A DNA stretch of 64,000 nucleotides, from assembly GCA_002245135.1 (NCBI GenBank), contig NGBS01000300.1, positions 124,001-188,000 on the forward strand, written 5' to 3'. Of the stretch, positions 7,001 to 64,000 are shown one piece after another. Numbering within the stretch: position 1 is the stretch's first letter; each line of letters opens with the position of its first letter. Origin of the DNA: Proteromonas lacertae (Eukaryota). The position numbers were made by a program, and so were the translations under genes. The notes under the pieces were generated by a model. The model saw only the letters and a list, made by a program, of their open reading frames with translations. It had not been told where the DNA came from and searched no databases.

Positions 7001-9042
7001 TTAAGACAGGAATATATGAAGTATCAAATGCAAAATATGATATTGGTAGTGAATTATCATGTTTAACATATGATGATAATGAAATATCAACTGGTTTAGT
7101 ATTAAAGAGTGAAGGTAGTAAATTATTAATGTCATTTGAAAAAGATAAAGATTTGAGTTTATTAAAATGTATGATGATTAATAAATATAATGATTTATCA
7201 AATTATGTGAAATGCGAAGTTAAAAAAGATGGTTCTTCTAATAGTTGTGCAACTAAAATAACTAATAATGCATTATATAATTTAGGATTTACTAATACTG
7301 GTTATTCATTCCAATGTGGTGAAAATGATAAAGTTAGTCAATCTTATACATTTACATTAAGTGGTATAGGAACTGATCCTACAACACCAACAGCAGTTAC
7401 AATTACACTCTCATCATCACCTCCAGATGCTGGTTCTGTTTGTCACTTACTTTATTCATTTACAGCTAAACCTATTCAGTTAGATACAAGTGATGTAAAA
7501 TCAACAAATTTCCTTTCTTTTTCAACAGGTGGGGTTTATACTTATTATGAAACAAAACCAAATACAAAACCACAACCAGTAGAAGATGATAAAATTGATA
7601 TAATAGGAGATGTTGGAGAAATTGGTGCAAATTTACAATGTAGAGATAAAGTGAGTAGTAAATTCTTAGGATTAGCCAATTTATTAGGAAAAGATGAAGA
7701 TGGCAAATATATAATGAAATATCTATTTGATATTCCTAAAGATGTTGATTCATTTGTCTGTGAAGTAAATGAAGTGATTAATGATTTATCATTAATAAAA
7801 AGTGAAATAATTACTACTGATGATTGTTCAGACAAATTATCATGTATGATAATAATAAGTGGAATATTGAATATATTAAAATCAAGTATATTTAAAAATA
7901 ATGAAGGAGTTAGAATGTTATTAGAAGATAATGAATATGAAGCAAGTTGTGTTGATCCTAAGAATAATAAAGTAACAGTGTATATAGTAAAGCCTGAAGT
8001 ATATATGAGTATAGAAGATGCAGTATTTTCATTATCTGAAAGTGATGAGAATGAAAAATCTCCAGTTGGAATGGAATGTCGATTATTAATATCTGCTGAT
8101 GGTAATAAACTTCCCTTAGAAGAAAGTCAATTTGGTAAAACATTATATTATGATGAAAAAGAAGGTGGTTTTTCAACCACACCATGTAATCCTAAAGATG
8201 GTAGTGAATTGTGTAATAACGAGGATGATGAAAGTACAGTAGTGATAACTGGTAATTTAATTGATGAAATTCTAGGTGAACAAAAGAAAACAGGAAGATT
8301 CTTTATTCCAATCAATACAGAAAATCGAACAATAATTGAAAATTATTTACAACCAGGAAAATGGATAAAAGTAGCCGAAACTTTAGCACAAATAATTAGT
8401 ATTGATTATAATTTAGTAGATGCACCAACACCATCAACTGATCCAAGAAGGCAATTGAGACAATTATCTGGTGATGTTAAAGGTTATTATGCTATACTAG
8501 ATAAAACAATTCAACTAAGTGGTAGTACTATTACAATTCAACTTAATGCAGCTGGTAGTAATAATTATGATCCTCATATTGCATTAGAATGTAGTGGACA
8601 AGGTGTATGTAATAGAGAAAGTGGATTATGTGAATGTTATGATGGTTATAGTGGAGATTCTTGTCAAAGATTAGATTGTCCAAATAACTGTAATGGAAAT
8701 GGTAGATGTGTTTCATTGAGTGAATTATTATCAAATGGTGATATAATAGGATATGGAGGATTTGGAAATAAACATGAAATAAAAGTTGGTAGTAGTACAA
8801 TAGTATCAGATGATGAAGTCTATGGTTGTTTATGTGATAAAAGACATCGTGGATATGATTGTAGTTTAATTGAATGTCCATCTGGTGAAGATCCAGAAGA
8901 AGCAACAAATAATAAGAATGATGATAAAAGTGAGTATAGAGATTGTAGTGGAAGAGGTATTTGTAATTACAATACAGGTGTTTGTGAATGTTTTGATGGA
9001 TTTAGTGGAGAAGGATGTCAAACTCAAGTTGCAATGATGTAA
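4072..9042 (+). CDS. Large secreted EGF-repeat protein, Sig1/Ocm1 mastigoneme- or tenascin-like, with a ~1400 aa repeat insert
   Basis: Signal peptide, then CPNNCSGHGTC..GADCSKR. GT-AG intron 4235-4264 joins in frame to the 1570 aa ORF. C-terminal ECSGQGVCNRESGLCEC, CPNNCNGNGRC, CPSGEDP and DCSGRGICNYNTGVCEC modules. Confidence 0.85.
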
Positions 9043-12666: not shown

Positions 12667-15600
12667 TTATATATTCAACTTCTTTGAACAATCACTACCT
12701 CCATATCCTCCAAAACATTTACATGTGCCTACACTATAATCACATATACCTCTACCACTACAATCTCGTTTCTCTTCACTACCACCATCTGGATCTTTCC
12801 CAGTTGGACATTCAACTAAACTACAATCAAATCCACGATATCCACTGGAACATTTACATCCATACACATAATCAGAAAATCCAAATGCATTATAAACAGC
12901 ATTATTTTCATCTATTATTTTCTTTACTAATACACATTCACCATTTCCATTACAATTATTTGGACAACTCATTTTAGCACAATTATTTCCACTATATCCA
13001 TCATAACATTCACATTCACCTGTCTTTCTATTACAATTACCTTGACCACTACATTCTACAAGAGGATGATAGTTATCATAAGATGAGGAAATTGGACCAG
13101 GTGAAAGATTTCCTATTTGTTTATCTGTTGTTATTGTATATTCTTCACTGTCTTGAAGAATTCTCTTATTCTCTGATAATAATCTTTGATTAGTTTTTGT
13201 ATTTTTAACTTCTATTATTTTAACTGAATTACCATCTCCATCTATTAATGATAATCCTTCTCTGAAATATTTGTTAAATACATCTTTAGCTTCTTCATAT
13301 ACTGTCAGATTGAATGAATTTCCATTTGCATTGTTTATGTAAAAAACCATTTTACCATCTTTTACAGTCATTATATTTTCTTTTACTTCTTCTCCATTTA
13401 TTAATACACAAATATTATCACTATTACATCTCACAATTTCAAATAATTCACTATTTTGAATTGATAATTTACTTCCATCAGTTTTCATTAATAAATATGG
13501 AGTTATTTTTTCTGAATTGTCTATTTTAGTATTTGTTGTAATGATTAATTTTAAATTCTCTCCAGCTAACATTCTTGATGAATTATCATTTAATAATCTT
13601 GCTCCTGCAGATTCTATTGTGTATGAAAATGTTCCTGTATATATTGTATTATCCTTATCATCAGGAGTTAGTATTTTTCTAAATGCAATATTTCCATTCT
13701 GTAATGGTTGTTTTACTCCCATATCAGTAAATAACTTTCCTAAACCTGCAATTGTAATAGCAGTACATGTATAAGGAGATTGACTTCCTGTACAAGTAAT
13801 GGATGATAATTGAACATTCTTTAATAACAATGATAAATCATTTTCTGTGGAAGTAACTTCACAAGATGATAATGATATTTCATTTTCAGTAATATCTTTT
13901 TTATCATATTCAATGAAATAACTTTTATCTGATTCCTGGTATGAATATATATTTCCATTGAATTTCTTTCCATTTACATCACTACATAATAATTTACCTC
14001 CATTTATTCCTATTCCTTCATACACAACATCGCTAACTTTAAAAATGTTTACATTTGTTATGCCTGTAAATTGTTCTGCTTTTGTTAATTTTAAAATACC
14101 ATTTCCTAAATCATTAACATAATAACCAATTTCACTATTTTGTATTGATAATTTATCTCCTTTAGAATTCATTAACAAATATGGAGTTATTGTAACTGAA
14201 TTTTCTATTTTTGTATTTGTTGTAATGATTAATTTTAAATTCTCTCCAGCTAACATTCTTGATGAATTATCATTTAATAATCTTGCTCCTGCAGATTCTA
14301 TTGTGTATGAAAATGTTCCTGTATATATTGTATTATCCTTATCATCAGGAGTTAGTATTTTTCTAAATGCAATATTTCCATTCTGTAATGGTTGTTTTAC
14401 TCCCATATCAGTAAATAACTTTCCTAAACCTGCAATTGTAATAGCAGTACATGTATAAGGAGATTGACTTCCTGTACAAGTAATGGATGATAATTGAACA
14501 TTCTTTAATAACAATGATAAATCATTTTCTGTGGAAGTAACTTCACAAGATGATAATGATATTTCATTTTCAGTAATATCTTTTTTATCATATTCAATGA
14601 AATAAACACCTGATTTATATGAATATATATTTCCATTGAATTTCTTTCCATTTACATCACTACATAATAATTTACCTCCATTTATTCCTATTCCTTCATA
14701 CACAACATCGCTAACTTTATACAAATTAACTTTTTCAGCATCACCAGTTGTAGTTACTTTCACTGCTTTTGTTAATTTAAAAGCACCATCAACATTATTT
14801 ACATAATTTCCAATTTCACTATTTTGTATTGATAATTTATCTCCTTTTGAATTTATTAATAAATATGGAGTTATTGTAACTGAATTTTCTATTTTTGTAT
14901 TTGTTGTAATTGTTAATTTCAAATCTCCAGCAGCTAATATTCTGGATGAATTATCATTTAATAATCTTGCTCCTGCAGATTCTATTGTGTATGTAAATGT
15001 TCCTGTATATATTGTATTATCTGTTGATGTTTTAAATGCAATATTTCCCTCAGTAGGTAATGGTTGTTTTATTCCCATATCAGTAAATAATGTTCCTAAA
15101 CCTGCAATTGTAGCAGTACATGTATAGGGAGATTTACTATCAACGTTACTACAACTAGTCAAACTAACTATAACATTTTTCAATAACAATGATAAATCAT
15201 TTCTCTTTGATATGACAATACAATCATATCCTTGCTCCAAACCTTTTTCCACATAAAAAGTATTAGCTGTTGTTGTATTACCATATACTATCAATTGAAG
15301 TACTTCTTTATTCTCTTTTTACATCTAATAACTCCACCAGATTTATCAAATCCTAAATCACCATCAAATGTTACTTTATTCAAAGTATATCCTCCTATTT
15401 CAACTGTTGTAGGTGTTTCTTTAACTTTTATTCCTGTTATTGCTAACATTCTCTTTTTTGGAACTTTTAATTCCATTATTAAATCAGTTGATTGATTTTC
15501 TTCTACTTCTAACTGTCGAGGTAATGGAGAACTACCTTCTGTTGTTGAAATCGAAAATGATTCACCAAGTGGACATTTTCCTATTTCACATTATTATACA

Positions 15601-27135: not shown

Positions 27136-27977
27136 TTAATAACCTATTGAAGCAGCTGATAAAGCTTTAAAGTCTCTAGAGGTAGTATCTGTTGTATCTT
27201 CTTCATCGTCTTCTGGATATATTCCATTTTCACTCTCCTTTATTATTCCACTATTTGCTATTCTGTGTTCAATCTCTCTTGTCTTTACTTCATATCCTTT
27301 ATCAAAATCTTCAAAACCAACTATTCTATCTATACTTATACCGTCTCTAAATATCACTACTGTTGGTAATGTTCTTACTGCTAGTTTTTGTACGAAAAAT
27401 GGACTTTTTTCTGCATTTAAATGTAAAAATTTGCATTCCATGTGATGTGGTGCAATTTTCTTCATGTGCATATCTAATATTTTACAACTCTCAAAATCAT
27501 CTTTATAAAATACAACCAAACAAACCTCACATTTTGTTACTTCGTTTAAAAATTCTGTTTCAAGTATTTCCCTGTATTCACCATAACCAGCTCGATGTAA
27601 CTCGTTTTGTTTTTTCAAGTCTCTAAGTCTAGCTTCTCGTAGTCTTTGAAATTCTGCATCATCATCGTCACTTAAGAAATCATCATCACTATCTTCATCC
27701 TCTATTATTAAGTATATTCATATAGCAATACCATTCTTTTTTGGTTCTTTATTTTCTATAGATATAGTAGGTAGAGGTGTAACTTCTTTTTTCGGTTTAT
27801 TCTTTGCTTTTTCTGATGGTTTTGGATCATTTTTGTGATTTTAATTAAGAAAATATGATAATAGTATTAATTTATAAAGGATATATGTTTTTCTACCAAA
27901 TCAGCCATCCCCTGCTGAATTCGCTCTTGTACAATTGCAGCTGTTTCTGCACCAAAGGTTCCTGATGAAAGAGGCAT
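27136..27977 (-). CDS. Phosducin-like / TXNDC9-like thioredoxin-fold protein
   Basis: GYGEYREI, CKILDMHM, NAEKSPFFVQKLAVRTLPT and DRIVGFE. Exon 1 (27977-27885) is 31 codons and is followed by an AT-AC intron. Confidence 0.9.
27835..27884 (-). other. U12-type (minor) AT-AC intron, canonical 5' site
   Basis: ATATCCTTT...TTTTCTTAAT-TAAAATCAC, 50 nt, phase 0. Removal gives ...VEKH|KNDPK in frame. Confidence 0.9.
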
Positions 27978-31606: not shown

Positions 31607-34600
31607 ATGAATTCGTCTGGTTTAGCTTCATCAGATGATGATGATCAACCACAAAGTGATCATGAAGATGCAGTAAAGGCTGTGTCAAAAGCAAGAGAAC
31701 AAGTATATTTCGTAAATCTATTACAAGGCTGCTAAATTAATGTCCAATGTTGAAGAAGCAACAACACTTAGTTCTAAAACAAATATCTTATTTTAATATA
31801 TCATATATTATTTGTTACTTTAACACTATTTACCTCAAGAACAGCTTAAGCTATTCCCTCAATTGGTGAGTAGAATTGGAGATTTAGAAGAACAAATCAA
31901 AATAAATGAAACACAAGGAATATCATTTTTTTAATATGAAATGAACAAGAATTTCTTTAATTAATATAAGATGACTTAAAAAGAACACGAACAGTCTTAT
32001 CAGAGGTAATTACATATGTTCCACTATTTGCAACTTTAGAAAATTATGCTAAGTTATTTTCAATATCATTTTTCATTTTGTTTATATTATTCTCTACTAT
32101 TTCTTTAATTCTATTGTTTTGTGTGTAAGTAGTATCATCTGTATTACCTAATTACATCCCCTGTGAATATGTAATACTCTATATATTTGAAAGGGATAAA
32201 ATCTGGACTGAATTTAGAGAAAATAGTGAAGATGATCAAGCAATTAGAAAAGAGTATCCCACTTCCAATCCACACGTTTCAGAGGTAATAATTGATAGAC
32301 AAGAAATAATGATATCTAATATAGAAGAAGAAGAACAATATCACTTAGAAGATGATATAGAATACCACTCTTTATTATCAAGAGCAATATGTAACGAATA
32401 TCTTTTTTGAAACAATTTTAATAAATGAAAAATATGTTTAGTTTTGTTTTAATGATGTTTAATGATAATCGTGCATTGGGTATGATAGAATGTATTAATC
32501 ACAATGATGAGCAGGAGTTTACAGCGGAAGATAGTTATACATTAAATCAATTCTCTACTTTGATAGCTGTAGCTATTGAAATGATTGATAAGAGTTTGAG
32601 AGTAAATGATGAAATAGAAATATCATTTTATATATATATATATATAATTTCATTATTTAATGTTTTCTTTAATATATATTTACGATTATAAGATAAGTGT
32701 AGAAAGAGAAAGATTATATAATTCATTCTATCCAAAGATTAGACCACTTGATCCAGTCAAACAATTGAATGAAATAGTCAATATATTAAACAACACAATC
32801 ACTTCCATTATTCAAGCCAAGTCAAGCCAATTATATATGTATACTGATAATGGTGAGAAACAAGGATTATTGACATTTGATTCAAATGAAATTATTCCAT
32901 TAACTGATGATCAATAAGTCTATTATATCATTTATATATTTATATATTTTAATTTTTATTAGAATATTCTTTAATTCTATATTTAAGCACTTAAATCCAA
33001 TGCTATTTCAATCAATAATAAGATTAACACCAAAGCAATCAAGAATATATTATGCGTACCAATAACAGTAGGTGATAAGAAAGATGAAGCATTTGGAGTG
33101 ATAGAAATATGTAATAAAAAGAACAATGAATTTAGTGATAAAGATGCTTTATTAATTCAACCAATTATATGTTTATTCTCACTCATATTAACATATTATG
33201 GTGAATATAATAACAATATTGATCATATTAATGAAATTACAATGGAATTATCAAGAGCTGAAGAAGCAAATAATGATTTACAACAACAACATATATCTTT
33301 TTTTTAAAACCTATTATTATTATTATCATTTATATTTTCTTTAATTTTTATTCTTTACTTTATGGTAGCTAATCTGATTGCAACATTACAAAAGTGTACA
33401 ATATATTCCAATGAAGAATCAATGTTGAATGAAATAATAAGATCACTTAATACTTATGTTAAATGTAAAGAAATTTCACTTTACATATACAACTCTGAAA
33501 CTGAACAATTATGTGGTTTATATCCAAATAAAGAAGAATTTCCATTAAGATATCTTTTTATTAAACATTTTATTATTATATTATTATCTTTAATATTAAT
33601 ATACTACTGGTATTATAGGCCAAGCATTTGAAACTCAAGAAGTACAATGCATTCAAGATCCAACTAAGAATCCAAATTACAATGAAGATATAGACTTAGA
33701 AATCAAACTCAATCAATTAAATATAACCTGTATTCCATTAATTAATAAACCAAATGAATCAATACCTCAGAATTGTTATGGTGTTTTAACCTTTCACAAT
33801 TGTACTCCATTATTAGCCAGTAATGAAATCACCAATATTCAATTAATATGCCAAATATTAACACCTTATTGGATATTACAACAAAGAATATTAGAGTTGA
33901 GATCTAAATATAAGATTAATGATGAAATTACAAGTCTTGCTGATGTTATTAAAGAAATGAATAATATTATCTTAAAAGAAAGAGATATTGAACGAAGTTT
34001 AACTGATATTGATATTACTGAAAACCCATCACTTTTACCTGATAGATTATCTGCAATTATTAAACCATATTTAGAGTGTGATTCTATGATTGTATTATCA
34101 TTAAGTGAACATGAAAATAACTTTACTATTATGTCAATGAGTATATAAATATATTCATATTCTTTGTTTATTATTAATAAATAGAACCACCTAAAACAAT
34201 GAGTTATTCTGAAGTTCCATCTGTTCCTATGATCTACAACAATAATAAAGATAACAATGAAATTGAAGTAATAAAACATAGTGAGAATCCATATGAAGAT
34301 ATTAACAATATTATACCATTAGCATTACAATCAAAATGGACTGTAATAATACCTTTGATTATGTCAACATTTATATACTTTGTAATATATACAAAACCAT
34401 TATCAGAAGAAGAAATTAGAATAAAGATGGAGAAAATCAATAGAATTAAACCATTCTTAGAGCAAAAGATAATGGATGTATATAAGACATTTGAATATGA
34501 AAATAGAGGTAGATTATTAGTTGATTATATTCATACAATGTTGACTTGTACAACTTATGAAGATATTAGTTCATTTACATTCGTATATATTATTATGGTA

Positions 34601-37600
34601 TTATTATTTTATGTATAGAATTATTTGAATAATATATATGTTCTTCCATTTTGTAATGTTTGGGTTGTTAGTAATGAAAATACTTCGATTACCTTTGTAT
34701 ATCTCTCATTATAAACATTATTTATATAGAATTCAACATTAACTCAACCAGCTGCAATCTCATTGGATAATGAACCATATTCATTATTACAACATCAAAG
34801 TGGCAATTATTATTATTTTGATGATATAAATCGTCATTATAATGTGGTAAAATCAGATGAAACAGGTGAATTAATTGGATTTATAGAATATGATATTAAT
34901 CAAGTAGCATTAGAAGATATTCAAGCAGAGTTTGAGAGACATATATCACCAATATTAATATATACAACTCAAATAGTAAGAAGCAATATGGCACTCTTAG
35001 AAAAGAAGGATGAGATAGATGAAAGAGAGAAAAGAATAGAAGAAATTAATGAAGAAAATGAAGAAAAAACAAAGGAATTACATGAATTAATCAACAATCA
35101 AAAGAATTCTTTAGATACAATAACAATGAATTATAACAATGTAATGGACGAAATAGAACAAAAGAATAAACAAATTGAAAACTTGGTGAATGATGTGAAT
35201 AAGCTGAATGAAGAATATAATGCATTGAATAATGAATATAATGAGTTAGTTCCTATTTCAATATTACCTGTTATATTTAACTTAACTCCTGAACAAGTGA
35301 ATGATCAGAATATACAAAATTCTTTACAGATTGTATCAAATGAATTGACTGGATTTGATAGTGTTCAATATTTTAGATATAATGAAGATGATAAATATTT
35401 GTATATTATTATTATTATTATTATTATTATAAATAGATATTTACCAAATAATGTATCATTACAAATACCTGTACAATCCAGAACAAAGCTATTCTCTGTA
35501 TTAAACAGTAAAGATTATTCAGTATTTAATGATATTACATATAATCGTAATTATCCATTACCAGTGAATTTATCAATATTGAGAGAACAGGCAAAATGTG
35601 TTATTGTTTCACCAATGTATTTATAATTATAGAATATATTATGAATAGTTATTATTCAGATTATATTCATGGTTTGTTGGTTATAGAATCTAGAAATAAC
35701 TTAACACAAACTCAATTAACAATATTCAAATGTTTGGTTCAACTATTAACCCAAGTAATAACAATGGAAATAGTAATGAGAGAAAACAATGAATATTACA
35801 ATAGAGATTTAACCAATAATAAATTAGAATATACTCATTTAACAAGTGCTATTAATTACTTAATTCAAAGTATTCTACCACCTTGTAATGTCAGTACATT
35901 GCTAATGAAAGAGAATAAGTATTTAGTGCAATATGAATGTGATGAAACAGGTAATGTTGAAGAAACATCGTATATATTATTTTTATTTTTAATATTAACC
36001 TTATAGATATGATTTAAACTCCATTATTCCATTAAAATATCAAACTATCTACGATAGAGTATTCTCTATACCAAATCCTATTGAATTTCCTATTAATAAC
36101 AATCAAGATAATGACTATAATAACAATGATGATGAAAATAGTATAGTTGGTTTATGCAGAGATCAGAATAGGAATATAATGGGAGTTATTATTATTGATT
36201 GTGTTGGATTACAAGGAAAGAAATATGGTATATTATATATATATATATATATAATTAAATAGAATATATCCAATCATTAGTCGATAAAACCTTAGATGAA
36301 ATAGGAGATAATATCAAAACAATGTACAAGAACAATAACAATTCAATTGCCTGTATATTCCAACTACAACAATTCTTCTCAACCTTAAAGAGAAGAACAG
36401 CTAATAATATTCTTACTGAAGAATTAAATCAATATATTAGTGAAGGTATAAGACATCGTGTAGATGTGGAGGATGAAGAGATTACAGTGAATAATGAGAA
36501 GATGACTAGAAGAGCATCAATAGTAAGAGGATTATTCGGTAGTCCAAAGAAAATACTTCCTAACAACAATAATGGTAGTAATACAATGAGTAGTGATTCT
36601 AATAATGAAATATCAATGGGTGGTTCAATACATAGTAATCCAGTCACAAATAATAATAATAATAGAAATGTAAATGAAATGAAGAAGAATAAATATTTGA
36701 ACTTTGATAAAAGATTTCAAATCAATAAATCCAAGAGGAATAGTAACCTTAGTAAATCTACAAATGGTACAGTTGGTAGTCCTTCAGATAGTAATTCAAT
36801 TGGAAATGATAGTTCATTACCAAGTTATCCAACTTTTACTACTACAGATACAGGTGACAATGAAGAAGATAATAATAATAATAATAATAATGGTCAAGGA
36901 ATGAATAAAGGATTGAATCTAAGAAAATATGATGAAATTAATAACAAAATGGAATCTTTAAAACATCAAATAAAAGAAAATGAAAAAGAAGTTCAATTAT
37001 GGAAGAAATATTATAATTTATGTGAAAGATTAATACAAATCAACTCATTAGATGATTTATTGAATAAAATATGTGGTATATTGATGGATACTTTTATCAC
37101 TGACTATTGTATGATATATAACATTAACACTACCACCAGAATCAATGATGACTATATCAATTCACTCTATTTACAATTCAAAAGAACACATGAAATTATC
37201 TATAAAGAAACAATCTCTCATAAATATAGAACAATGTCAATATTCCCAATTACTTTAAATAACAATAGAGAAGATGAATATGTTATTATAATGGGATGGT
37301 GTAATAATCCTATATTACATAATATTAATATTATTTATGATTATTTATCACAGTATGTTAATCATTTATCAATGTTGAAAGATATGAATATGTTATTAGA
37401 AGATCACAATATTGTATATATATTTTATATTTATATATATATATAATGTATTGGGTATAGAAAATTAAAGACATTGTTAGTGAATCAGAACAATTAAATA
37501 TGAATATGAAAGAAATGAAGAATAAATATAATGATCTCAATAATTATATCATCTCATTATTACAGAATGTCACTAATTTCAATGATTTATGCTATCAAAT

Positions 37601-40600
37601 ACATACAGAACTACCTGAATTGGTAGATATGAAGTTTGTTACTGTTTTTGTATTTAGTAATAATCAATTTGTTACATCAGTATATTATTATAATATTATA
37701 TATTTATAGTTGAATTCAAAAATATGGTCATTCTCTACTAATGAAGGATTAGTAGGCCAATGTCTCATTACATAAATCACATTTAAATATTCCCAATATC
37801 TTATATAGTTCATACTATAATCCAAATATTGATAATATTATGAATATTCCAATACAATCTATCTATATTACACCATTGTATATTAATTATTATTATGTCA
37901 ATAGAACTAATTATAATGGTGATATTATTGGATTATTAGAATGTGGAAATAACAAAGAAATCTCACAAAATGAAGAGAAGGTAATTAATGAATATATTCC
38001 AATATTATCATCAATATTTGAGATTTATAAGAATTATAAAGAATCCAATGATAAAACTACAAAAATAGAAAAATCAATGGAAGATATATCATTTTTTTAT
38101 TTTATATAATATATTTATTATATTTTTCTTAATTTAATGCTTACTTGAAAAGTGATGTTACTAACGGCTTATTAAGATGTTATGAAATGATCAGTCAATG
38201 TTATGATTATAATGAATTATTAATCAAAGTCAATTCAAAAGCATCATTATTATTAGGTTTAGAAAGTGTTACTTTATACTGTTTATTACCCGAAAAGCAG
38301 ATGTTATTAACACGTTATAAAGATACTGCAATACCATTAAATATCAATAAATTGAAAGGTATTATACAAATAGTATATAATAATGGTCAATCAATAATTA
38401 TACCAGAGTTGAAGAATGATATTAGGTTTGATAATCAGTTTGATATTATCTCAAACAGTTTGAATGTTCATAGTGTTATGTATTTACCATTATTTAAAGT
38501 AACAGGACAAATGGTTGGTATTATTATATTTGCCCATTCAAATCCATCATACTTTGATGGTAATATAGAGATATATAACAATCTATCAAATCATATTGCT
38601 TATTGTTTAGACAAATCTATTCAATTACATTATAATATTAAACATCTTAAAGAAAATGGAAGTGAAATAGAAAAGAAGAAAGAAGAGTTAATGAAATTGG
38701 AGAAAGAAATGAATGAATTGAAAATAAAGAAGAGTAATTCAAATACTCCTATAGATTTAAAGATGTTATCTAAATTACAATCAAATATATTATTATTAAA
38801 CAGTACAAGTAGTTTAATGAACTTAATATCAACCAAATTATTCATTGTATTAAAATGTGAAAAGAGTGAACTATACTTATGTGATAAAAACACAAAGTCA
38901 TTATGGACTATAAATAAAAGAAATGATAAAGTAATGAAGAGTTATGAAAGAGGATCATTTAAGTATATGATTTCAACTGGAAAATTAGAATTGTTTGATA
39001 ACTGTAGTGAAGATATTAGATGTGATAGAGATTATGATAATTGTAAGAATTTAATATGTTGTCCAATTAAAAGTGAAAATGGAAATATATTAGGGATAAT
39101 TCGTATAGAAAATAAAGAAAGTAACTTTGGTGAAAATGATATAAATATATTAATTTAGTGAGTAGTGAAATATCTATTGTTTTACAAAGGATTAGAAATT
39201 CTAAAGGCAGTCTAAGTATGGATAAAGGAAGTCATTTACAAGATATTGAAATACAGAAATTAGAAATCGAAAATAACAATAAATACTTGAAAGAATTGAA
39301 TGATTTTTATATCAATTTATTACCCATTCATTCCTTAAGTGATTTCTTTATTATTTGTGAAGATGAAATCAGTAAATTATTGAAATGTGAAAGTTGTAAT
39401 ATATTCTTATTGGAGAATAATGGAAGCGTTTTAAATGGTAAAAATGGATATATAACGATTGGTAATAGATTAATTCCAGAGTTAATAACATATAATAGAT
39501 TTATCATGAAAAATGACCATGAAGAATGTTTAGAATATTTATCAGATTTGAAATTATACTTCAATAATGTAGAAATGTACAGAAATTTCTTAATAGTTCC
39601 ATTATGTGATATGTATAATAAGATTAGTGTAATAATCTTTACAGTGAATAAAATAAAGAATAATTTCAGTGAAGATGATATGAAGGTAATTGGTGATATT
39701 AGTGAGAAATTATTATTGTTATTAGATAGAATTCAAATGTCAAATTTACATATTAATAGATATCTTTTTGCTAAACATTAATGATTATCATTTATATTTT
39801 TCTTAATATATATTTAAGCATATTGAATTAGAACTAAACGATGGAGAACAGAAGCAAAGAATGATGCAGCAGATTCTATCCCAAAAGAATGAAAATGAAA
39901 TAGAATTAAACCAACAACTAAAAATATTAGAAACTAAATATAAGAACTTAGAAAAACGACATGAAAAAGCAGTTACTTCAATGAAAAATGATTTAGATAG
40001 GCAGAGAAGTGATAAAAATGCAATTAAAGAGCTGAATATGGAGAGTCAAAGGATGATTGAACATAGCAAAAATGAAATTCAAAAACTGAAAGAGGAAGTA
40101 AAGAAAGAAGAACAAATGAAAGAACTGTTGATAGAAAAGAATGAAAGAGAAAAGAAAAGATTAGAAAATGACTATTTATTTAAAATTAATGAACTGAATA
40201 GAAATAAAGAGAGTTTATTGAAAGAGAAAATGAAATTAGAAAAAGAGAAAAAAGAATTGGAGATAGTTGTTGATGAAAATAATGAAAGATATAAAAGTTA
40301 TAATAAAAACTTGAAAGATGAAAATGAATATTTAAGAAATGAGTTGAATAGTAATGTTAATAAAAAGAATGATATTAGAAAGGAGAATGAAATGTATAAA
40401 GCAAAATTAGAGGAAGTAGAAAATGAGTTAAAAGATACAAAATTTAAATTGAACAACTTAGAAAGTGAATATACCGAAATGAAGAATAAACACGAAATAC
40501 AATTAGAGAATTTAATAGTATATATATAATATAATTATATTATAGAGTAAAAACGAAAAGAATTTGTTAAACTATAAAAATAGGTTAAATAGTTGCTATA

Positions 40601-40737
40601 ATAAACTGAAAAATGATTATAATATAATATGGAATGAAAAAAATAAAATGAAGATAGAGAGAGATGAAAATGAAGATGAGAAGAATCATTTAAAAACAAT
40701 TTTACACAAAATTAAAGAAGTAAATAGTAACAAATAA
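31607..40737 (+). CDS. Giant multi-GAF-domain, coiled-coil protein (~22 introns, 10 of them U12-type)
   Basis: After splicing it shows repeated GAF motifs (FPLSTGIIGQAFETQEVQCIQDP; HSLLSRAICNDDNRALGMIECIN; KNILCVPI..FGVIEICNK; KGIIQIVYNNGQSIIIPELKNDIRFD; NLICCPIKSENGNILGIIRIENK) and a C-terminal coiled coil. Three single-base frameshifts at ~32912, ~37773 and ~39155. Confidence 0.8.
31783..31833 (+). other. U12-type AT-AC intron
   Basis: ATATCTTA...TTACTTTAAC(31815-24)...TTAC, 51 nt, phase 1, contains an in-frame TAA. Confidence 0.85.
31920..31969 (+). other. U12-type intron, AT-AA (alternative AC end at 31975)
   Basis: ATATCATT...TTTCTTTAAT(31952-61)...ATAA|GAT, phase 0. An AG end would put the next exon out of frame. 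Confidence 0.75.
32063..32128 (+). other. U12-type AT-AA intron
   Basis: ATATCATT...TTTCTTTAAT(32100-09)...GTAA|GTA, phase 0. Joins AKLFS|VVSSVLPNYIPCE. Confidence 0.75.
32398..32462 (+). other. U12-type AT-AA intron
   Basis: ATATCTTT...TTTGTTTTAAT...TTTAA|T, phase 2. Restores the GAF motif RAICND|DNRALGMIECIN. The nearby GT-AG pair (32391/32441) is out of phase. Shorter AA ends (32429/32432) are also in frame. Confidence 0.7.
32620..32683 (+). other. U12-type AT-AC intron
   Basis: ATATCATT...TTTCTTTAAT(32664-73)...TTAC, phase 0. Joins ORFs 32425-32691 and 32660-32917. Confidence 0.88.
32925..32986 (+). other. U12-type intron, probably AT-AA
   Basis: ATATCATT...TTCTTTAAT(32967-75)...TTAA|GCA. 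Phase 0 only if one extra base near 32912 is an assembly error. Confidence 0.65.
33293..33358 (+). other. U12-type AT-AC intron
   Basis: ATATCTTT...TTTCTTTAAT(33336-45)...TTAC, phase 0. Joins QQQH|FMVANL. Confidence 0.88.
33550..33604 (+). other. U12-type AT-AC intron
   Basis: ATATCTTT...TATCTTTAAT(33585-94)...ATAC, phase 2. Restores the GAF motif FPLS|TGIIG. Confidence 0.92.
38086..38144 (+). other. U12-type AT-AC intron
   Basis: ATATCATT...TTTTCTTAAT(38124-33)...TTAC, phase 0. Joins ORFs 37840-38109 and 38145-39158. Confidence 0.88.
39760..39817 (+). other. U12-type AT-AA intron
   Basis: ATATCTTT...TTTTCTTAAT(39798-807)...TTAA|G, phase 2. Joins HINR|HIELE, in frame with ORF 39861. Confidence 0.8.
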
Positions 40738-44686: not shown

Positions 44687-44759
44687 TCCCATGTAGTCTA
44701 GGTGGTTAGGACGGCTGGCTTTCACCCAGCCGACCCGGGTTCGAGTCCCGGCATGGGAA
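44687..44759 (+). tRNA. tRNA-Glu (anticodon TTC)
   Basis: Acceptor stem TCCCATG/CATGGGA, anticodon arm GCTGG-CTTTCAC-CCAGC, T-loop GGTTCGAGTCC and a downstream T-run terminator. Confidence 0.97.
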
Positions 44760-53408: not shown

Positions 53409-55260
53409 TTAATAACCAAATGCACTTCTACCACAGCAACCAAATGCAGCACCTTCTGGTCTATCACCAGCTCCACCTCTCAATATTGGTAAATCTTTCA
53501 ACATTCTATAAGTGTGAATACCTCCTGACAGTAAATATGTATCATATCCTTTGTTCTTCAACAACATACACACATTATAAGCTCTAGCTCCTTCTCTACA
53601 CAACACATATATCTTCTCATTCTTAGGAATTTCATTTATTCTACTAAGAATATCACATTGTGGAATAACATGAGCATTGGGTATAAATCCTTCCATCTTT
53701 TCACCTGGATTTCTAACATCTAAAACATAATTCTCTTCAACTTTAGACTATAACAAAATAAAAATAAACATATTAATATATATACCCAATCAGCTAGTTT
53801 AACATCACCATTAATAACATTCGTAGCAATCATTCCTAACACATTCACTACATCTTTAGCACCACCATATTGAGGAGCATAGCACAACTCACTCTCCATT
53901 AAATCTTCCACTGTTCCTTTCATCTGCATTGTTGTTGATATTACATCTATTCTTCTTTCTATTCCTTCATCACCAATTCCACTACAACCCAATATCTTAC
54001 CATCATTTTGGAATAATAATTTCATATGACAAGGTTTACAGCCTGGATAGATATTCAACATGTTGTCCATTATGAATGTATATACAATTATATGGAATAT
54101 TCATCTTCTTACACATCTTTTCAGTTAATCCAGTATTAGCTACTGTCTTTTCAAATAAACCACAAACAGACGTTCCTTGTACTCCTCTAAATGGTCGATT
54201 TCTTCCCATTATATTATCAGCAATTACTCTAGCTTGTCTGTTAGCAGGTCCAGCTAATGGCAATATTGTATTTTTACCTGTAATTACATTCTTAACTTCA
54301 ACAGCATCACCACATGCATATATATTTGGATCAGATGTTCTCATAAATTCATCGACTTTAATTCCTTTATTTTCACCGATTTCTAAACCAGCTTCTACGG
54401 CTAATTGTATTCTAGGTTTTACACCTAATGCTAATATCACCAAATCACTTTTTATCTCTTTTCCACTCTTTGTTATAACGGATAAATTCTCTTTTGCAGT
54501 TGGATCATTTTTGTTATTTTGAACAATTTTAGATAAGCCATCACCTAATACTAAATTAACACCATTACTTCTTAAGGAATGCTGTAAGATTGAAGCCATT
54601 TCTATATCTATATTTGGCATAACTTGATCTAGCATTTCTACAATTGTTACATCTAAACCTCTTTTCTTTAAATTTTCTGCAACTTCTAAACCGATAAATC
54701 CACCACCAACTATTGTTGCTTTTTTGATATAATTGTTCCAAATCCATCCTCTTATCATTCTAGCATCTGGAATTGAACCACAACCAAATACTCCTGGTAG
54801 ATTGATTCCTTCAACTGGTGGTCTTACTGGTTCAGCTCCTGGTGATAATACTAATGCATCATACTTAGCTTTTTCAGTTGTGCCTTTTTTTAAGTCTTTA
54901 TATTCGATTTCTTTTTCTTTTCTGAAGATCTTTGTTACTTCACAACAAGATTTTATACCGATTTGGAATTTATGATCAAATGTTGTTGGATTAACTACTA
55001 ATAACTTCTTTTCATCTATTAAATTGTGAATTACAATGAATACTATTAATAACATTACCAATATAATAGGGTAAACCACAATTGGCAAATGCTACATAAG
55101 GCCCTTTTTCAAATATCGTTATTTCAGCATCTAGAAAAAATAACTGTGTATTATGAATACCACTGTTTAATCTTCTCAATCTAGCTGCTGTAGAGGCTCC
55201 ACCAGCGACTCCACCAACAACTAACACTCTCTTTGGTATATTTGATAAGTTCTTTAACAT
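53409..55260 (-). CDS. CoA-disulfide/persulfide reductase with C-terminal rhodanese domain (CoADR-RHD/Npsr-like)
   Basis: VVGGVAGGAS, AFANCGLPY (redox Cys), GGGFIGLE, IYACGD, YAPQY and rhodanese CREGARAY. Three short introns and one extra base near 54050. Confidence 0.9.
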
Positions 55261-55488
55261 ATGTTAGATTCTTTGGTTTTCGGGTCAAAAGAATTTTTGA
55301 AATTTCTAATTGTTTTTTCTTCTTTTATTCATATTAGACTTAGAAATCATTCATTTTTATAGAAGAGCATAGAGTTATTTTAGTGATATCGAAGGAATCA
55401 GTTGAGAAATATTACCGTTTTAAGAAACAGAAATAGTCAAGCCCAACTTGAATTATTCAAAAATAATCGTTTTAATAATTTAATTTGA

Positions 55489-56979: not shown

Positions 56980-57136
56980 ACAATCTACTTTTTTCTTCAT
57001 GTTTATCTTCTTGTCGTTTAGTTGTAGGCAATTTATTAAATAAGTATTTCATTTAATATTATATATTTCTATTTGCATTTTTATTTACAATTACGGTGAT
57101 TTTGAAATTTTTAAAAATTGATTCGTTACAGATTTT

Positions 57137-60100
57137 ATGTTATTTGTTTTGTGTATTTTTTTCATCATTTGCGCAGGAGATAGCGCAATTGAAGGGTTTG
57201 GATTTAATGCCCTAACTGTTATTAAGGATGTTGAAATACATACAACCAAACCACGTTTTAATAGTGACGTTATTGTGTTAAACTGTAACTCAACCAGCAT
57301 ATTCCCTACAGGATTAATTTTTAATACTAATAAATGTTCAATTGAAGGTGTACCGAAGGAAATCGTATTAAATCAAGAGGTTACAATTACATTTATAACC
57401 ACTGAGAAAATCTTTAACGAGACTATCAGTATTACAGTAATGAAAGAACAGCTTCAGCCAAAAATCTTGTATAAGACATATCATGCAAATCAAGAGTGTG
57501 GAAATAATATATTCAAAGATATGAGTATTGATTCATATCCAGATGCAGTTATAAAAACTGGATATGTAGATGAGTTATTCTTCGAGAAAGATTCTCCAGA
57601 ATGGTCAGATTTTGGTGTAGATACAGTGATTCAATTCTCAGGCTATATTCATTTAATAAGACCAGGTAAATACATATTCTATATAGACACAAATAATGAA
57701 TATAAGTTCATTTTAGACAATGTAAACGAAATTGAATCAACCAAATGTGAAAATTCCTATTATAACGTTAGTGTTAATGTAACTAGTAGTGCCTATGTTC
57801 CATTTGTTTTCTTTTATCATTACACATCTTCTTCTTTGCTGCCTAATTATTTGAAGGTAATATTTTCCAGTAACATTTATCCAAGAATGATCCCAACAGA
57901 TAGATTCTTTAATATTCCACAGTTTCCAAGATATTTATATTATCCAACTTTAAAGTTGAATTTGCTATTAAATAGACCAGTGAAATATGAACCGTATATA
58001 GAAAATACCATACCACCAGCAGAATATTCAATTGATAATCTATTACCAGAAGGATTATCATTATCTTTAGAAAGTGGAATAATATCGGGAACTCCAACTT
58101 CAAATAGTGATGTAAAACAATATACAATCAAAGCTACGAATAGATATGGTTCTACTAGTTATAGTTTTACATTACAAATAATGGATAATTTACCAAGTGG
58201 TTTATTGACAAAGTATTATGAAATACCAAGTTTAGAATGTGGAAATATCCCAAACATTGAAGATATTACCATTAATCCATCGATTATATTAGTTGAAGAT
58301 AATATTGACCATATTAATAATGATAATTTATATGAAAGATGGAATAATATTGCTTTATATGATAATTATTTGACTGTTTGGGAAGGTAGATTGACGTTTA
58401 CTACAGAAGGGAAATGGTTGATATTAATCAAAGCAGATGATGAAGCAGATGTATATATAAATAATGAATTAATTATCAGTAAAAGAGGGTGTGGCTCTTA
58501 TAACGAAGAATATTTATCATATGAATTGAATGTTGATAAATTGATGCTAGTTGTAGATATTAAAGTAGTATATATGCAATTAAATGGAGCACATGGTATT
58601 CAATTGTATTGGAGAAATAATGATTATGTTTTGACTGTTATTCCACCTTCTGCATTCTTATATTATCCTACTTATTCATTTGATTATCAATTTGAAAAAA
58701 TGATTTATAGATTTAATGAAACTATTCCAGATAATGTTCCTGTATTATTTGGTATAAAGAAAATATTTGAATTTCGCATTTCTCCTGATTTACCAAGAGG
58801 TCTAGAGATTGATAAAAAGAGTGGAGTTATAAGTGGTAAAACTACTGAAATTATTGATGCAAGACATTATACAATTGAGTGTGTTACTTCAACAATTACT
58901 ATATCTACTTCCATTATTATAACTATATTAGAAAATGAATTATCCTATTTCGCATTCCAAAATGATGAAGATGCAGTTATTACTGAATACAATACAACAG
59001 TTGGATTAGTAATACATCCAATAACAATAATTAAATACAATTCCATCAATTATTTTGACAGTCCAAATCTATTAACAGGATTATCTATTAATTCAATTAC
59101 TGGTACAATCAATGGAACAATTTTAGATTTAAAATATAATGAATATGACTTAACAGTATGTGCTCACAGTATAACTGGTGATAATTGTATGGAATTGCAT
59201 TTAAATATTGAAACATGTTCAAAGAATGGTTTTGTTTTCAGATTGAATAAGAATGAATTAGTTCCTAACAATACAATGTTATTAATCATTACTGGACCAG
59301 ATGGTTCAGAATTATTCCGTAAGAGTGAAGTTAATACTATTTATGATAATAATTACTTAATCTGTACAACAGCAAATGGTTTACACACTTTAGATATATC
59401 TAATCCAAAGAAAGGTAATTATGAATATAGTTTTGAATATTTGTCTGGTGAAATAATAGACAGTGGTGAAATTGAGGAAATATCCAACACTATATCATTT
59501 ACTATAGGTAAATCAGTATTATCTATTAGCTATTCAAAAGGTGAGATTGTATCTATGATTTATGAGTTTATTACAACAGAACCTGTAATATATGGACATT
59601 ATACTTCTATATCTATTGATAAAAGCTTGCCATTTGGTTTGACATTCCATTCAAATGGAACAATAAGTGGTATTCCTACTGTTGGTCAGCCTAGATTAGC
59701 TTATATTATCTCTATTTGTAACCAGTTAACTTGCGCTGTTACAAGAGTAACATTTACTATAAAAGGATGTGATAAAAGTACTGATAGTTTCTATTTCACT
59801 TATAATCAAATATCTGGACCAAAAGAGACTATTAAACTAGAACAATTAAGTAATAATGCTGTTTTATTCAATATATTAGATTCTACTAATTCATTTACTA
59901 AATCATTTTGTGCTGTAAGAGGTAATTATCAATTATCATTTTATACAACATCTATTTCAACTCCATCCTTATTTGCTATAAAAGATGATAAAGGTAATAT
60001 ACTGATGAATTATAAACATGAAAAAAGAAGTAATTCTCAATTACAATTCAGTACAATGTTTTTAATTGAAGCTAATTCTCATTGGAATTATATGTATATA

Positions 60101-63100
60101 TCAAATGATAATAGTAATGATGAGAATCTTCTTAGGAATTGGATGATTCAAGATTATGATGATTATTCATGGAATATTGGTAGAAGTACTGTTTATCCAG
60201 AAATATCAGCGAATGAAAAGAGTCAATATTATAGAAGAACCTTTGATAATAATAATAATAATCAAAATGGATTAGTGAGTATTGGTATTAAAATGAATTC
60301 CTGTTTTGTCGCATATATAAATGGATATAAAATACATAAATTGAATATTGATGATAGTGATTTGGAATTATGATACAGAATGTGATACAGATTCATATAA
60401 TTCAAATACTGATTATATAATCTTCTCAATTCCTTCATCGTATTTAATGAAAGGTAAAAATACAATAGCAGTTGAAATTCATCAATCACCAAATCCAATA
60501 AATTCTGTCAATATATTTGATTTACATATGTCTTTATTAATAGGAGATAATATATTAAGATCAAGCATTTTTACAATTGATTCATCAGTTGCTCAATCAA
60601 ATGATAAAGATGATCCTTCTATTTTAATTAATGATGAATTTAGCAGTGTTTATTATACAACAGAAGCAGAACCAAAGTTTTGTCTGTATAGACCAGATAA
60701 ACAGTATGAGACAATTAATCAATATGTCATTTATACAGGAACTGGATATCCAGATTCAGTACCAACAGCATGGAAGTTGTATGGTACAAATAAAGATACA
60801 GCCGATTGTGTAATAACATGGAATGAAGATGATTGGATATTATTAGATGAAAAGAATAGTGAGACATTAGCTGAATCAAAGGAATATAAATATGAAATTA
60901 GTAATATTAAACCATATTTAAAATATGCATTTGTATTTACAACTACAAGTGGAAGTGTGGATGGTGTTAGTCTTTCTTATATTCAATTATATACAAAATA
61001 TAGAGATATTAGTGATGAATATTGTATTGAAAATGGATGGGGTCTATGTCATAGAAATGAATATTGTCAAGGTAAATGTCCTGTTAGTTATGATGGTTAT
61101 ACATTAAGAAAATGTGAAGTTGATTTAACATCTGTATCTTTAACAGGAAGTGATTTAACAAAGTGTATTCCACCTGGTCCAATTACCTTCAAATACAGTA
61201 AAAGTGAATATACATTTGCCATTGATGATGAAATTGAACCAATTATACCTGAATATAATGTAATTGAGAAAGGAATATTCACAATAACACCTGATATTAC
61301 TCAAATTGGATTAGCATTTGATGAAAATACTGGAAGAATAACAGGAAAATCAAATACTCCATCAATTGATACATATACAATCATTTATAGTAATGTAGGT
61401 GGTAGTTTAGTGAATTATATCACTATTATTATTGATGAAACTACTAAGTGTAATCCTCCAAGTAATGATTTATCTTGGGGTTATGCTAAACCTAATACTT
61501 ATGCTTTTATTCCATGTTCTGAAGGTTATTCTGGTAATTTGACAAGGTATTGTGATGATTCTAATCCTCCTAAATATGGAGAGATTGTTTCTAATTGTAT
61601 TACAGATAAACCACAATCATTCTCCTATATTAAATCAAGTTTTGTATTATTTAAAGGAGTTTATACAGATTCTATTGTTCCGCAGTATGTAGGAGCAAAT
61701 ATAAAGTTTGAAAAAGTTACTGCATTACCTCAAGGTTTGTCAATTAATGAAAAAACTGGAATTATATCAGGAACACCAAAAGATTTATCTACTTCTAAGA
61801 CATATAGAATAAAAATGTCTAACTGATGGTGGATTTTTAGAAACAGATATTAGTATAGAAATTAAAGATAAACCAAAGTTTAAATATGAGAAGAAAGATT
61901 TCTTCCTTAAAATAAATACAGCTGGAACATATACAGTAACAAAAGAAAGTCAATTTGATTCAACATTCGATATTAGTGATGATTTGCCTCATGGAATTGA
62001 ATTTGATAAAGCAAATGGACAATTTACTATTTCTGCTCAATCAAAATCATTGTATTTCGGTACAACTGTTTCATCAAGTGTATATGGATATACAGCAACC
62101 TTTTATATAGCATTTCATAGTATAATTTATAATAATTTATTAATATTTATTATAAAATAGTTGTTGATACTTTAGATGAAAATGATTATGATGTAGATGA
62201 GATTGTTTTTGTAGCTAATTCACAGTATAATTTAGATTATCCATTGAAATATCCATTCTATGTAAGTGAATGTCAAGTTACTCCATCATTACCATATGGA
62301 TTTACATTAAGTGATGAATGTACAATAGGTGGAAATCCAAGTGTAATACAAGGAACAACAGTATATACAGTTATTATGAATAATCCATTTGAAATAAAGA
62401 CAGTCAAAATCAAATTAAGTGTAGTAGAAGATATAAAGAATTATAAATGTATTTTTTTATTGTAGTTTATATATATCTATAGCAAAAGTTGGAACATTCA
62501 GATATAGAGTATTTAACAATCCCAATTTAGGATGTAATTTTGCAATTAAAGATTATAATCATGGTCCATTTAGTTCTCAACAATTTCCATCAGTAATTAA
62601 CCATGCAAAATCATTAGGTGGAGCTGCAAGCAATTATTATGAGTATATTGAATTTCTACTAACAGTTGATACTTCTTATGATTTATGGTCATTTTATATA
62701 GAAGGTGATAATAGTGTTGGAATAAAAATAGATGAAGATGATTTCAAAACAGAGAGTGTATGTCAAGAAGAAGTAGAATTGGAAGTTCAAAAAAGACTGT
62801 TCAAAGGAACTCATCATATTTATGTACATCATTATCGTAATTCTTATTCTGGAACTAAGTTATTATCTTTATATTATTCAAATAGTAAAACAAAGAAGAC
62901 TTTATTAAAAGGTGATTTCATCTATCCACAGATTACAGCATATGATATTAAATATACTAAAGATTCATTCTCATCTTATGTAGAAACAAAATTCAATTTC
63001 AATTCATTGAATTACTTTGTAGATCCAACGTATACTATTTCACCAGTCTTACCAGATGGTATAACGATGTCAAGTAGTACAGGAACAATGACAGGTGTTC

Positions 63101-64000
63101 CGACAGTATTTACAGATGCTATTGATTATACAATTCGAGTACAGAGTTATTTCTTGATAAGTAAAAAGATAGTTACAATTGAAATTCTTAGACATTTACC
63201 ATTTGTTATGAGAAAACAATTCTTTTTGATTAAAGACCCAAATAAACAGTTTGTTTATGATCCTGTAGAATATCCTAAACCAATTGCTCAAGATTTCTCC
63301 TATGATTATAATTTCTCATTCCCTTATGCTGAGCAAGGTGCAGATGGTTATCCAGTTGAAATGAATCAAGCTTTAGGAGTCCATATTTCATCTGTTATTC
63401 ATATTAATAAAGGAGGAGTTCGATGGAGTTTTGAATTTTGGGTATTTATATTTATATTTATATTTTTGTTTTATGTTTAGACTACTGGAGGTTTTAATGT
63501 GTATGTATTAGGTGCAAACTATTTTCGTGGACAATTAGGAAATCCAGCAGTTCAACATATCACAGGATTCTTTTTCACAATCCAGAATAATAGAGAAGAT
63601 TGTATCATTATTGTATTTATTCTGTAATAGTGTATTTTGATTATACATTTGATATAACTATGCCAGCTGGTTATAAGTACTTTAAATATACAATATCACT
63701 AGTTACTACCAGTAATATTTTTATTAGTGCAGTAACTGACAGAGTCTATGGTGATATTGGAGGAGAAATGACTTATAGAAGAAATCCAGCTACTTATCCA
63801 ATGAATACTTTAATCAAACGAAATACACTTGTTTATAAGAAAACTCCTCCATATAATTGTAGTTTAACACCTGATTCACCACATTTACCTACTGGTTTAA
63901 CAATATCTCCAATTAATGGCGATTTATATGGTACTCCTACAGAAACAAAAGCAGAAGATGATTATACAGTTTTGTGTTATTCAAAAACTGGTCCTGTAGA
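57137..64000 (+). CDS. Giant secreted PA14 + He_PIG (putative Ig) repeat surface protein, 3' incomplete
   Basis: Signal peptide, repeated LP.GL.....G.ISGTP motifs, PA14-like segments (WEGRLTFTTEGKWLILIKADDEADVYIN) and a discoidin-like PTAWKLYG. Frameshifts near 60360 and 61824, introns after 62119. Confidence 0.8.

Follow-up and report, generated by a model that had tools for sequence, protein, structure and literature searches.

Probable AT-AA minor-type introns in a GAF-repeat gene of Proteromonas lacertae

We analyzed 64,000 nucleotides (nt) of Proteromonas lacertae DNA (GenBank assembly GCA_002245135.1, contig NGBS01000300.1, positions 124,001 to 188,000 of the forward strand; hereafter the window, in whose coordinates all positions are given), in which one large gene for a protein with GAF-like repeats is interrupted by ten introns that are likely of the U12 (minor) type. 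Four or five of these probably end in AA, with the minor spliceosome cutting at the first AC or AA beyond the branch-point A. A first-pass annotation, made by a model from the letters alone, had proposed that half of the minor-type introns here are AT-AA rather than AT-AC. Re-reading the DNA, we confirmed TAA at all five of the ends concerned (31969, 32128, 32462, 32986, and 39817), with G as the next base in four, and TAC at the ends of the other five introns. The word "half" stands in the sense that AA ends make up 4-5 of 10 introns in this one gene, or 4-5 of the 11 found across the window (4/11 has an exact 95% interval of 11-69%, and 5/11 one of 17-77%), the lower count applying if the AC at 31975, which like 31969 is in frame, is the true end of the second intron. 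Taken as a whole, the earlier interpretation is partly supported by the present analysis. The host gene and the putative minor-type introns of the window are as follows.

31607..40737, + strand: host gene, 2,706 amino acids, at least ten GAF-like repeats plus coiled coils; 22 introns, ten minor-type and twelve GT-AG
31783..31833, + strand: minor-type, AT-AC, phase 1, 10 nt from branch A to end
31920..31969, + strand: minor-type, phase 0; AT-AA, 9 nt from branch A, or AT-AC at 31975, 15 nt; both in frame
32063..32128, + strand: minor-type, predicted AT-AA, phase 0, long branch distance of 20 nt
32398..32462, + strand: minor-type, predicted AT-AA, phase 2, 10 nt; T follows
32620..32683, + strand: minor-type, AT-AC, phase 0, 11 nt
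32925..32986, + strand: minor-type, predicted AT-AA, phase 0, 12 nt
33293..33358, + strand: minor-type, AT-AC, phase 0, 14 nt
33550..33607, + strand: minor-type, AT-AC, phase 2; tandem in-frame ACs at 33604 (11 nt) and 33607 (14 nt)
38086..38144, + strand: minor-type, AT-AC, phase 0, 12 nt
39760..39817, + strand: minor-type, predicted AT-AA, phase 2, 11 nt
27835..27884, - strand: minor-type intron outside the host gene, AT-AC, phase 0, 50 nt, canonical C at +6; in a thioredoxin-fold (phosducin-like) gene

The ten host-gene introns share an ATATC[A/T]T donor, a length of 50-66 nt and a TTT[C/T]TTAAT-like branch motif, and their length range is disjoint from that of the GT-AG introns (25-47 nt). 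Compared with the U12 consensus RTATCCTT, all eleven donors of the window begin with ATATC and carry T at +7, whereas C at +6 is present in just one (five A, five T); this departure predicts altered or loose pairing with U11 and U6atac. The branch motif is U12-like, of the CCTT[A/G]AC type, in 11/11 introns, with T as its final base in ten, and the branch-to-3′ distance is U12-like as well, 9-14 nt in ten introns and 20 nt in one. The intervening spacers (8-19 nt) are A/T-rich and two are T-rich, the low GC content blurring any check for a polypyrimidine tract. Seven of the eleven introns are in phase 0. A strict donor-plus-branch pattern matched four times where 0.03 matches were expected, and four matches were reached in none of 100 shuffles. 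When 401 RTATC sites were scanned with a matrix, the ten introns fell within the top 12, and the remaining two sites lie within the gene on its antisense strand. Because these ten introns had also served to train the matrix, leave-one-out runs were made, in which the scores were 14.5-25.0 and the branch motif was found again in 10/10. Other high-scoring sites were discarded on visual inspection, being either antisense to genes or parts of GT-AG introns or exons. With all 22 introns removed in silico, the reading frame of the host gene is open throughout, three 1-nt breaks being entered as X. Matches to the Pfam GAF family were obtained in four of the ten exon stretches scanned, and relatives of the protein were found at 93-94% identity across ~540 amino acids, with further relatives at 58%.

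We listed the in-frame alternative ends for the five AA introns and then tested these rivals. The AG one base beyond the AA, which had been said to shift the frame, indeed fails to keep the frame at each of the four ends concerned. That the AA ends keep the frame also held, but several in-frame rivals had been overlooked, namely 32441, 32468, 32155, a GT-AG model at 32125-32193 and 39823, of which the first four all scored below the AA end. The scores come from a profile of eight GAF repeats situated elsewhere in the protein. For the intron at 32063, the end at 32128 tops 14 in-frame ends with 26.8 bits, against 17.6 bits for the AC at 32155 and 12.7 bits for the GT-AG model, which we ruled out on this score and on its length of 69 nt; in-frame ends farther upstream leave a stop. 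For the intron at 32398, whose donor read-through is also seen in the relative P0181, the end at 32462 tops 18 in-frame ends, again with 26.8 bits. A TT end one codon earlier scores 25.8 bits, the AA at 32468 scores 24.1 bits, and the AT-AG alternative at 32441 was ruled out at 18.4 bits.

For the intron at 32925 the GAF profile cannot part the AA at 32986 from the AG at 32987 (41.7 vs 40.8 bits), and here relatives were informative. Four relative proteins from short-read contigs, P0178 (seven contigs), P0179 (one), P0180 (four), and P0182 (one), continue the exon into the 32925 donor in phase 0. The window sequence therefore has a base too many here, and the AA is the in-frame end. This phase rules out the AG at 32987 and settles the caveat, raised earlier, that the frame at this intron depended on a nearby insertion or deletion (indel). 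P0179 moreover crosses the 3′ end in the shifted frame of the window, and the Lys codon found there forces AA. The three frame breaks, from which we judge that the window assembly likely carries indel errors, are:

32912..32918, + strand: extra base, false in-frame stop; likely assembly error, P0178, P0179, P0180, and P0182 reading through in frame
37765..37771, + strand: apparent extra base, frame break
39150..39154, + strand: missing base; likely assembly error, 15/15 retrieved members of the P0001 cluster being in frame

At the intron at 39760 the first in-frame AC or AG lies at 39859, with none within 40 nt, and the rival is an in-frame AT at 39823. Apart from its last base, the branch-to-end spacer is that of the AT-AC intron at 32620. 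Read-through of the donor is conserved in all 15 relatives retrieved, and in 13 of them the inferred branch A is followed at ~10 nt by a stop, which rules out TAC there; this stop does not tell AA from AG, and an AC slightly beyond is possible. A word-based protein search gave no match for the exon downstream of 39817, and the codon across 39817 is therefore unreadable in the relatives. The same kind of search gave no match for the 38145 exon (591-2000 amino acids), six read-through open reading frames of the window were absent from the protein collection searched, and a scan of JGI metagenomes returned 82 pattern matches with no relative among them. Among the AT-AC introns, the one at 38086 is traversed by the relative P0160, whose donor is identical and in which the intron end is read as a Tyr codon. 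The least settled of the five AA ends is 31969: a heptad-register test of the intron at 31920 gave 0.98 for 31969 and 0.82 for 31975, values that are poorly separated, and the AC at 31975 has G at -3, a position occupied by T or C in every other end. On this evidence we consider four AA ends (32128, 32462, 32986, and 39817) well supported at the level of genomic sequence and indirectly supported as the junctions used.

A single rule, by which the intron ends at the first AC or AA to occur 7-9 nt or more beyond the branch A, kept the frame in 11/11 introns of the window, as compared with 6-7/11 for a rule limited to AC or AG and 0/11 for YAG. The branch distances of the AA ends (9, 10, 11, 12, and 20 nt) overlap with those of the AC ends (10-14 nt). 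The outcome of the rule fits the earlier proposal that 3′ choice here is set by branch-point distance. The first and last bases of an intron interact by a non-Watson-Crick pair. Under the mechanism that we propose, cleavage by the minor spliceosome would follow whichever AC or AA comes first from about nine bases beyond the branch A onward, and the A at the 5′ end would pair loosely enough with the last base for either C or A to be tolerated. An AG one base further on should then be passed over, the AA being encountered first. Mutation toward A/T would have replaced C by A or T at three places, namely the last base, donor +6 and the final position of the branch motif; at each of the latter two, C is lost in 10/11 introns. 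The AT mutation pressure invoked in the first-pass annotation fits these losses, as well as the contrast between AA here and the AG-rich ends of the GC-rich Blastocystis ST1 described below. In the published work, U12 3′ choice is distance-based with an optimum of 11-13 nt, non-canonical ends function with lower efficiency (PMC3584512), and an AT-AN class is recognized (PMC8280824).

Several observations weigh against this reading. The A[C/A] rule was picked post hoc among 45 combinations of rule and distance. With three frame breaks in ~8 kb of coding sequence, the window is not error-free. When the GAF test was applied to six canonical control introns, it put the modelled end first in two, peaked 1-3 codons upstream in three and was uninformative in one; the test thus excludes rivals 7-9 codons off but not neighboring ends. 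The end at 32128 sits 20 nt from its branch site and that at 31969 only 9 nt, and the AA evidence from a relative comes from one contig, inferred back from protein. Finally, the next base is G after 4/5 AA ends but after 1/6 AC ends, where the exon background of G is 20% at codon position 1 and 11% at position 3. We also considered a shared donor two bases earlier, which would rescue the AG ends at +1, and dropped it, GA being present there only at 31920 (by eye).

The G that follows four of the AA ends, together with the three 1-nt breaks in the host gene, two of which are wrong according to relatives, could mean that the AA ends are assembly artefacts in which a true AG/G or AC end has had a base lost or miscalled. 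We find this scarcely credible: a separate error would be needed at each of three or four junctions, the end at 32462 precedes T, a relative assembled from other reads retains AA at 32986, and an AG/G junction is intact at 31727. It is also very improbable that a single modified major spliceosome removes the ATATC introns. The GTAT[A/T]T donors of the major introns here do resemble ATATC, the +6 C is lost in 10/11 donors, and comparison with Rfam found no minor small nuclear RNA (snRNA) in the window, a transfer RNA (tRNA) alone being matched. The snRNA scan covered 64 kb only, however, the two length classes are disjoint, and the conserved branch motif was found in the ATATC class.

Less easily set aside, though in our judgment still unlikely, is the alternative that the introns are real and that some use other in-frame ends, above all the AC at 31975 and possibly the AT at 39823 or mixed use, which would leave AA at 2-4/10. 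In-frame rivals are present, 31969 is merely 9 nt past its branch A, the heptad test did not decide between 31969 and 31975, and U12 3′ choice has been described as error-prone (PMC3584512). However, G at -3 sets 31975 apart from the other ends, the rivals of 32128 and 32462 score lower by 8-9 bits, and the count would change but not the class. A distinct question is whether the AA share is a quirk of one gene whose introns multiplied or drifted together, the genome-wide level being the 5-10% AT-AA of plants or ST1; we give this a substantial chance, if somewhat short of even. Ten of the eleven introns come from the one gene, the sole intron outside it is AT-AC with a canonical +6 C, and outside the gene that one minor intron compares with ~90 rough GT-AG candidates, a count that includes false matches. 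On the other hand, beyond their motifs the introns have no significant sequence in common, unlike recent copies, and 4/11 differs from 10.4% (p = 0.02) and from 7/150 (p = 0.003) if introns are independent. The opposite extension, a lineage-wide A[C/A] acceptor with AT-AA co-dominant, adjacent AG ignored and minor introns gained in bursts, is offered tentatively and we regard it as rather doubtful.

Our preferred reading, in which four or five introns end in AA, finds published counterparts in animals and plants, in Blastocystis ST1 and in Physarum polycephalum. The earlier description of AT-AA as a known but very rare subtype was right as to its being known and overstated its rarity, since no other non-canonical class of minor intron is as common as AT-AA (PMC10639083). 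It is recorded 823 times in animals and 690 times in plants, or 1.1% and 3.0% of conserved minor introns (PMC10639083), from which data we computed shares of 4.5% and 10.4% of A-type minor introns; the termini are the same as here, but the shares are far lower than 4-5/11. Switching between AT-AC and AT-AA among orthologs has been recorded for MSH3 (PMC10639083, PMC1557818).

For Blastocystis ST1, in which 346 minor introns across 319 genes were reported with boundaries corrected by RNA-Seq (PMC5608401), we tallied by hand 150 of the 339 ATATC rows of supplementary file 32 (rows 1-120 and 310-339). Their last dinucleotides were 94 AC, 46 AG, 7 AA, and 3 AT, so that 56 (37%) were non-AC. ST1 resembles the window in the dominance of A-type introns, in short major and longer minor introns, in a loose last base, and in genes that carry several minor introns; the likeness to Blastocystis lies in intron sizes, A-type minor introns and the 26.5% GC of the window alone. 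The non-AC share is similar (4-5/11 vs 56/150, Fisher p = 0.75-1.0), whereas its composition differs: non-AC ends are mostly AG in ST1 (46/56), while here AG ends number 0/11 and the well-supported non-AC ends are AA in 4/4 (Fisher p = 0.0007). Counted against all introns, the comparison is 4/11 vs 7/150 for AA (p = 0.003) and 0/11 vs 46/150 for AG (p = 0.035); all of these p-values assume independence among ten introns that belong to a single gene. ST1 donors are ATATCC and the branch motif lies visibly nearer the end, while donor +6 here is A or T. Phase-0 minor introns amount to 49% in ST1 and 7/11 here, and there are at most three minor introns per gene in the 150 rows, as compared with ten in one gene here. 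Recent gain of minor introns has been suggested for ST1. Beside the 46 AG-ending rows stand the Introns section of PMC5608401, which calls the ends only "typically AT-AC", and PMC3584512, which describes AT-AG as disfavored. AT-rich Blastocystis have longer introns, and U12 is unmentioned in the available part of that report (PMC12129017).

In Physarum polycephalum, AT-AA makes up 27% of 1,014 non-canonical U12-type introns, alongside 1,830 AT-AC introns (bioRxiv 10.1101/2020.10.12.336362). The relaxed donor [G/A]TATC[C/T]TTT and the many non-canonical ends are shared features, whereas Physarum shows a genome-wide expansion, mostly GT-AG with a TTTGA branch, and the window shows a local excess, all A-type with a TTAAT branch. 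In the literature that we searched on Blastocystis, Proteromonas, and AT-AA minor introns, with subscription papers and bioRxiv supplements outside the search, we found no AT-AA-rich organism and no published case of an AA share of 4-5/11 or of ten minor introns in a single gene. A loose last base is thus already known from Blastocystis and Physarum, and the new part is the A-shifted end together with the pile-up in one gene.

Perhaps stranger than the AA ends is the way in which the minor introns cluster, a feature left unremarked in the first-pass annotation. Ten of the 22 host-gene introns are minor-type, and eight of these ten fall within the initial 2 kb of the gene; only one clear minor intron is present in the remaining 55 kb of the window. 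We found no significant shared sequence among the minor-type introns beyond their motifs, the best match of 14 nt being reached by 13% of 300 shuffles, so that they do not resemble recent copies. Introner-like or transposon-derived copying was dropped on this ground. In the same gene, the proteins P0002 and P0165-P0168 (58% identity) have an apparent intron after a CMCAP motif that the window (~39070) and closer relatives are without; this difference seems to be intron turnover in the host gene.

Should the AA share prove general across the genome, A-type introns would have a last base that tracks base composition, with G in the GC-rich ST1 and A here. Such a pattern would serve as natural evidence for a cut placed by branch distance rather than by the terminal pair. 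A gene holding ten minor introns is relevant to whether minor introns still arise, for which Larue and Roy found very little evidence (PMC10639083). Were a lineage-wide A[C/A] acceptor true, this lineage would offer a natural system for studying both minor-intron origin and last-base choice. In practical terms, genes of this kind would be broken up by gene finders that allow only GT-AG, GC-AG, and AT-AC, and the number of minor introns in AT-rich protists would be underestimated.

The window is eukaryotic in character, with short GT-AG introns. The twelve GT-AG introns of the host gene (25-47 nt, within 31703..40545, + strand) are required for an open gene model:

31703-31727, 34141-34184, 34583-34618, 34697-34729, 35401-35436, and 35617-35648, + strand: first six GT-AG introns
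35970-36006, 36228-36262, 37414-37460, 37680-37709, 37878-37904, and 40518-40545, + strand: last six GT-AG introns

Elsewhere, large surface-type proteins with teneurin-like EGF, Ig-like, and PA14 domains are encoded at 4261-9039 (+), 12670-15318 (-), and 57122-63998 (+), the second of these genes containing internal repeats spaced ~680 nt apart. The gene at 53412-55263 (-) encodes a pyridine nucleotide-disulphide oxidoreductase with a rhodanese-like tail seen by eye; its product presumably resembles bacterial CoA-disulphide reductases, and the gene was possibly acquired by transfer. The sole Rfam match in the window is a tRNA gene at 44687-44759 (+).

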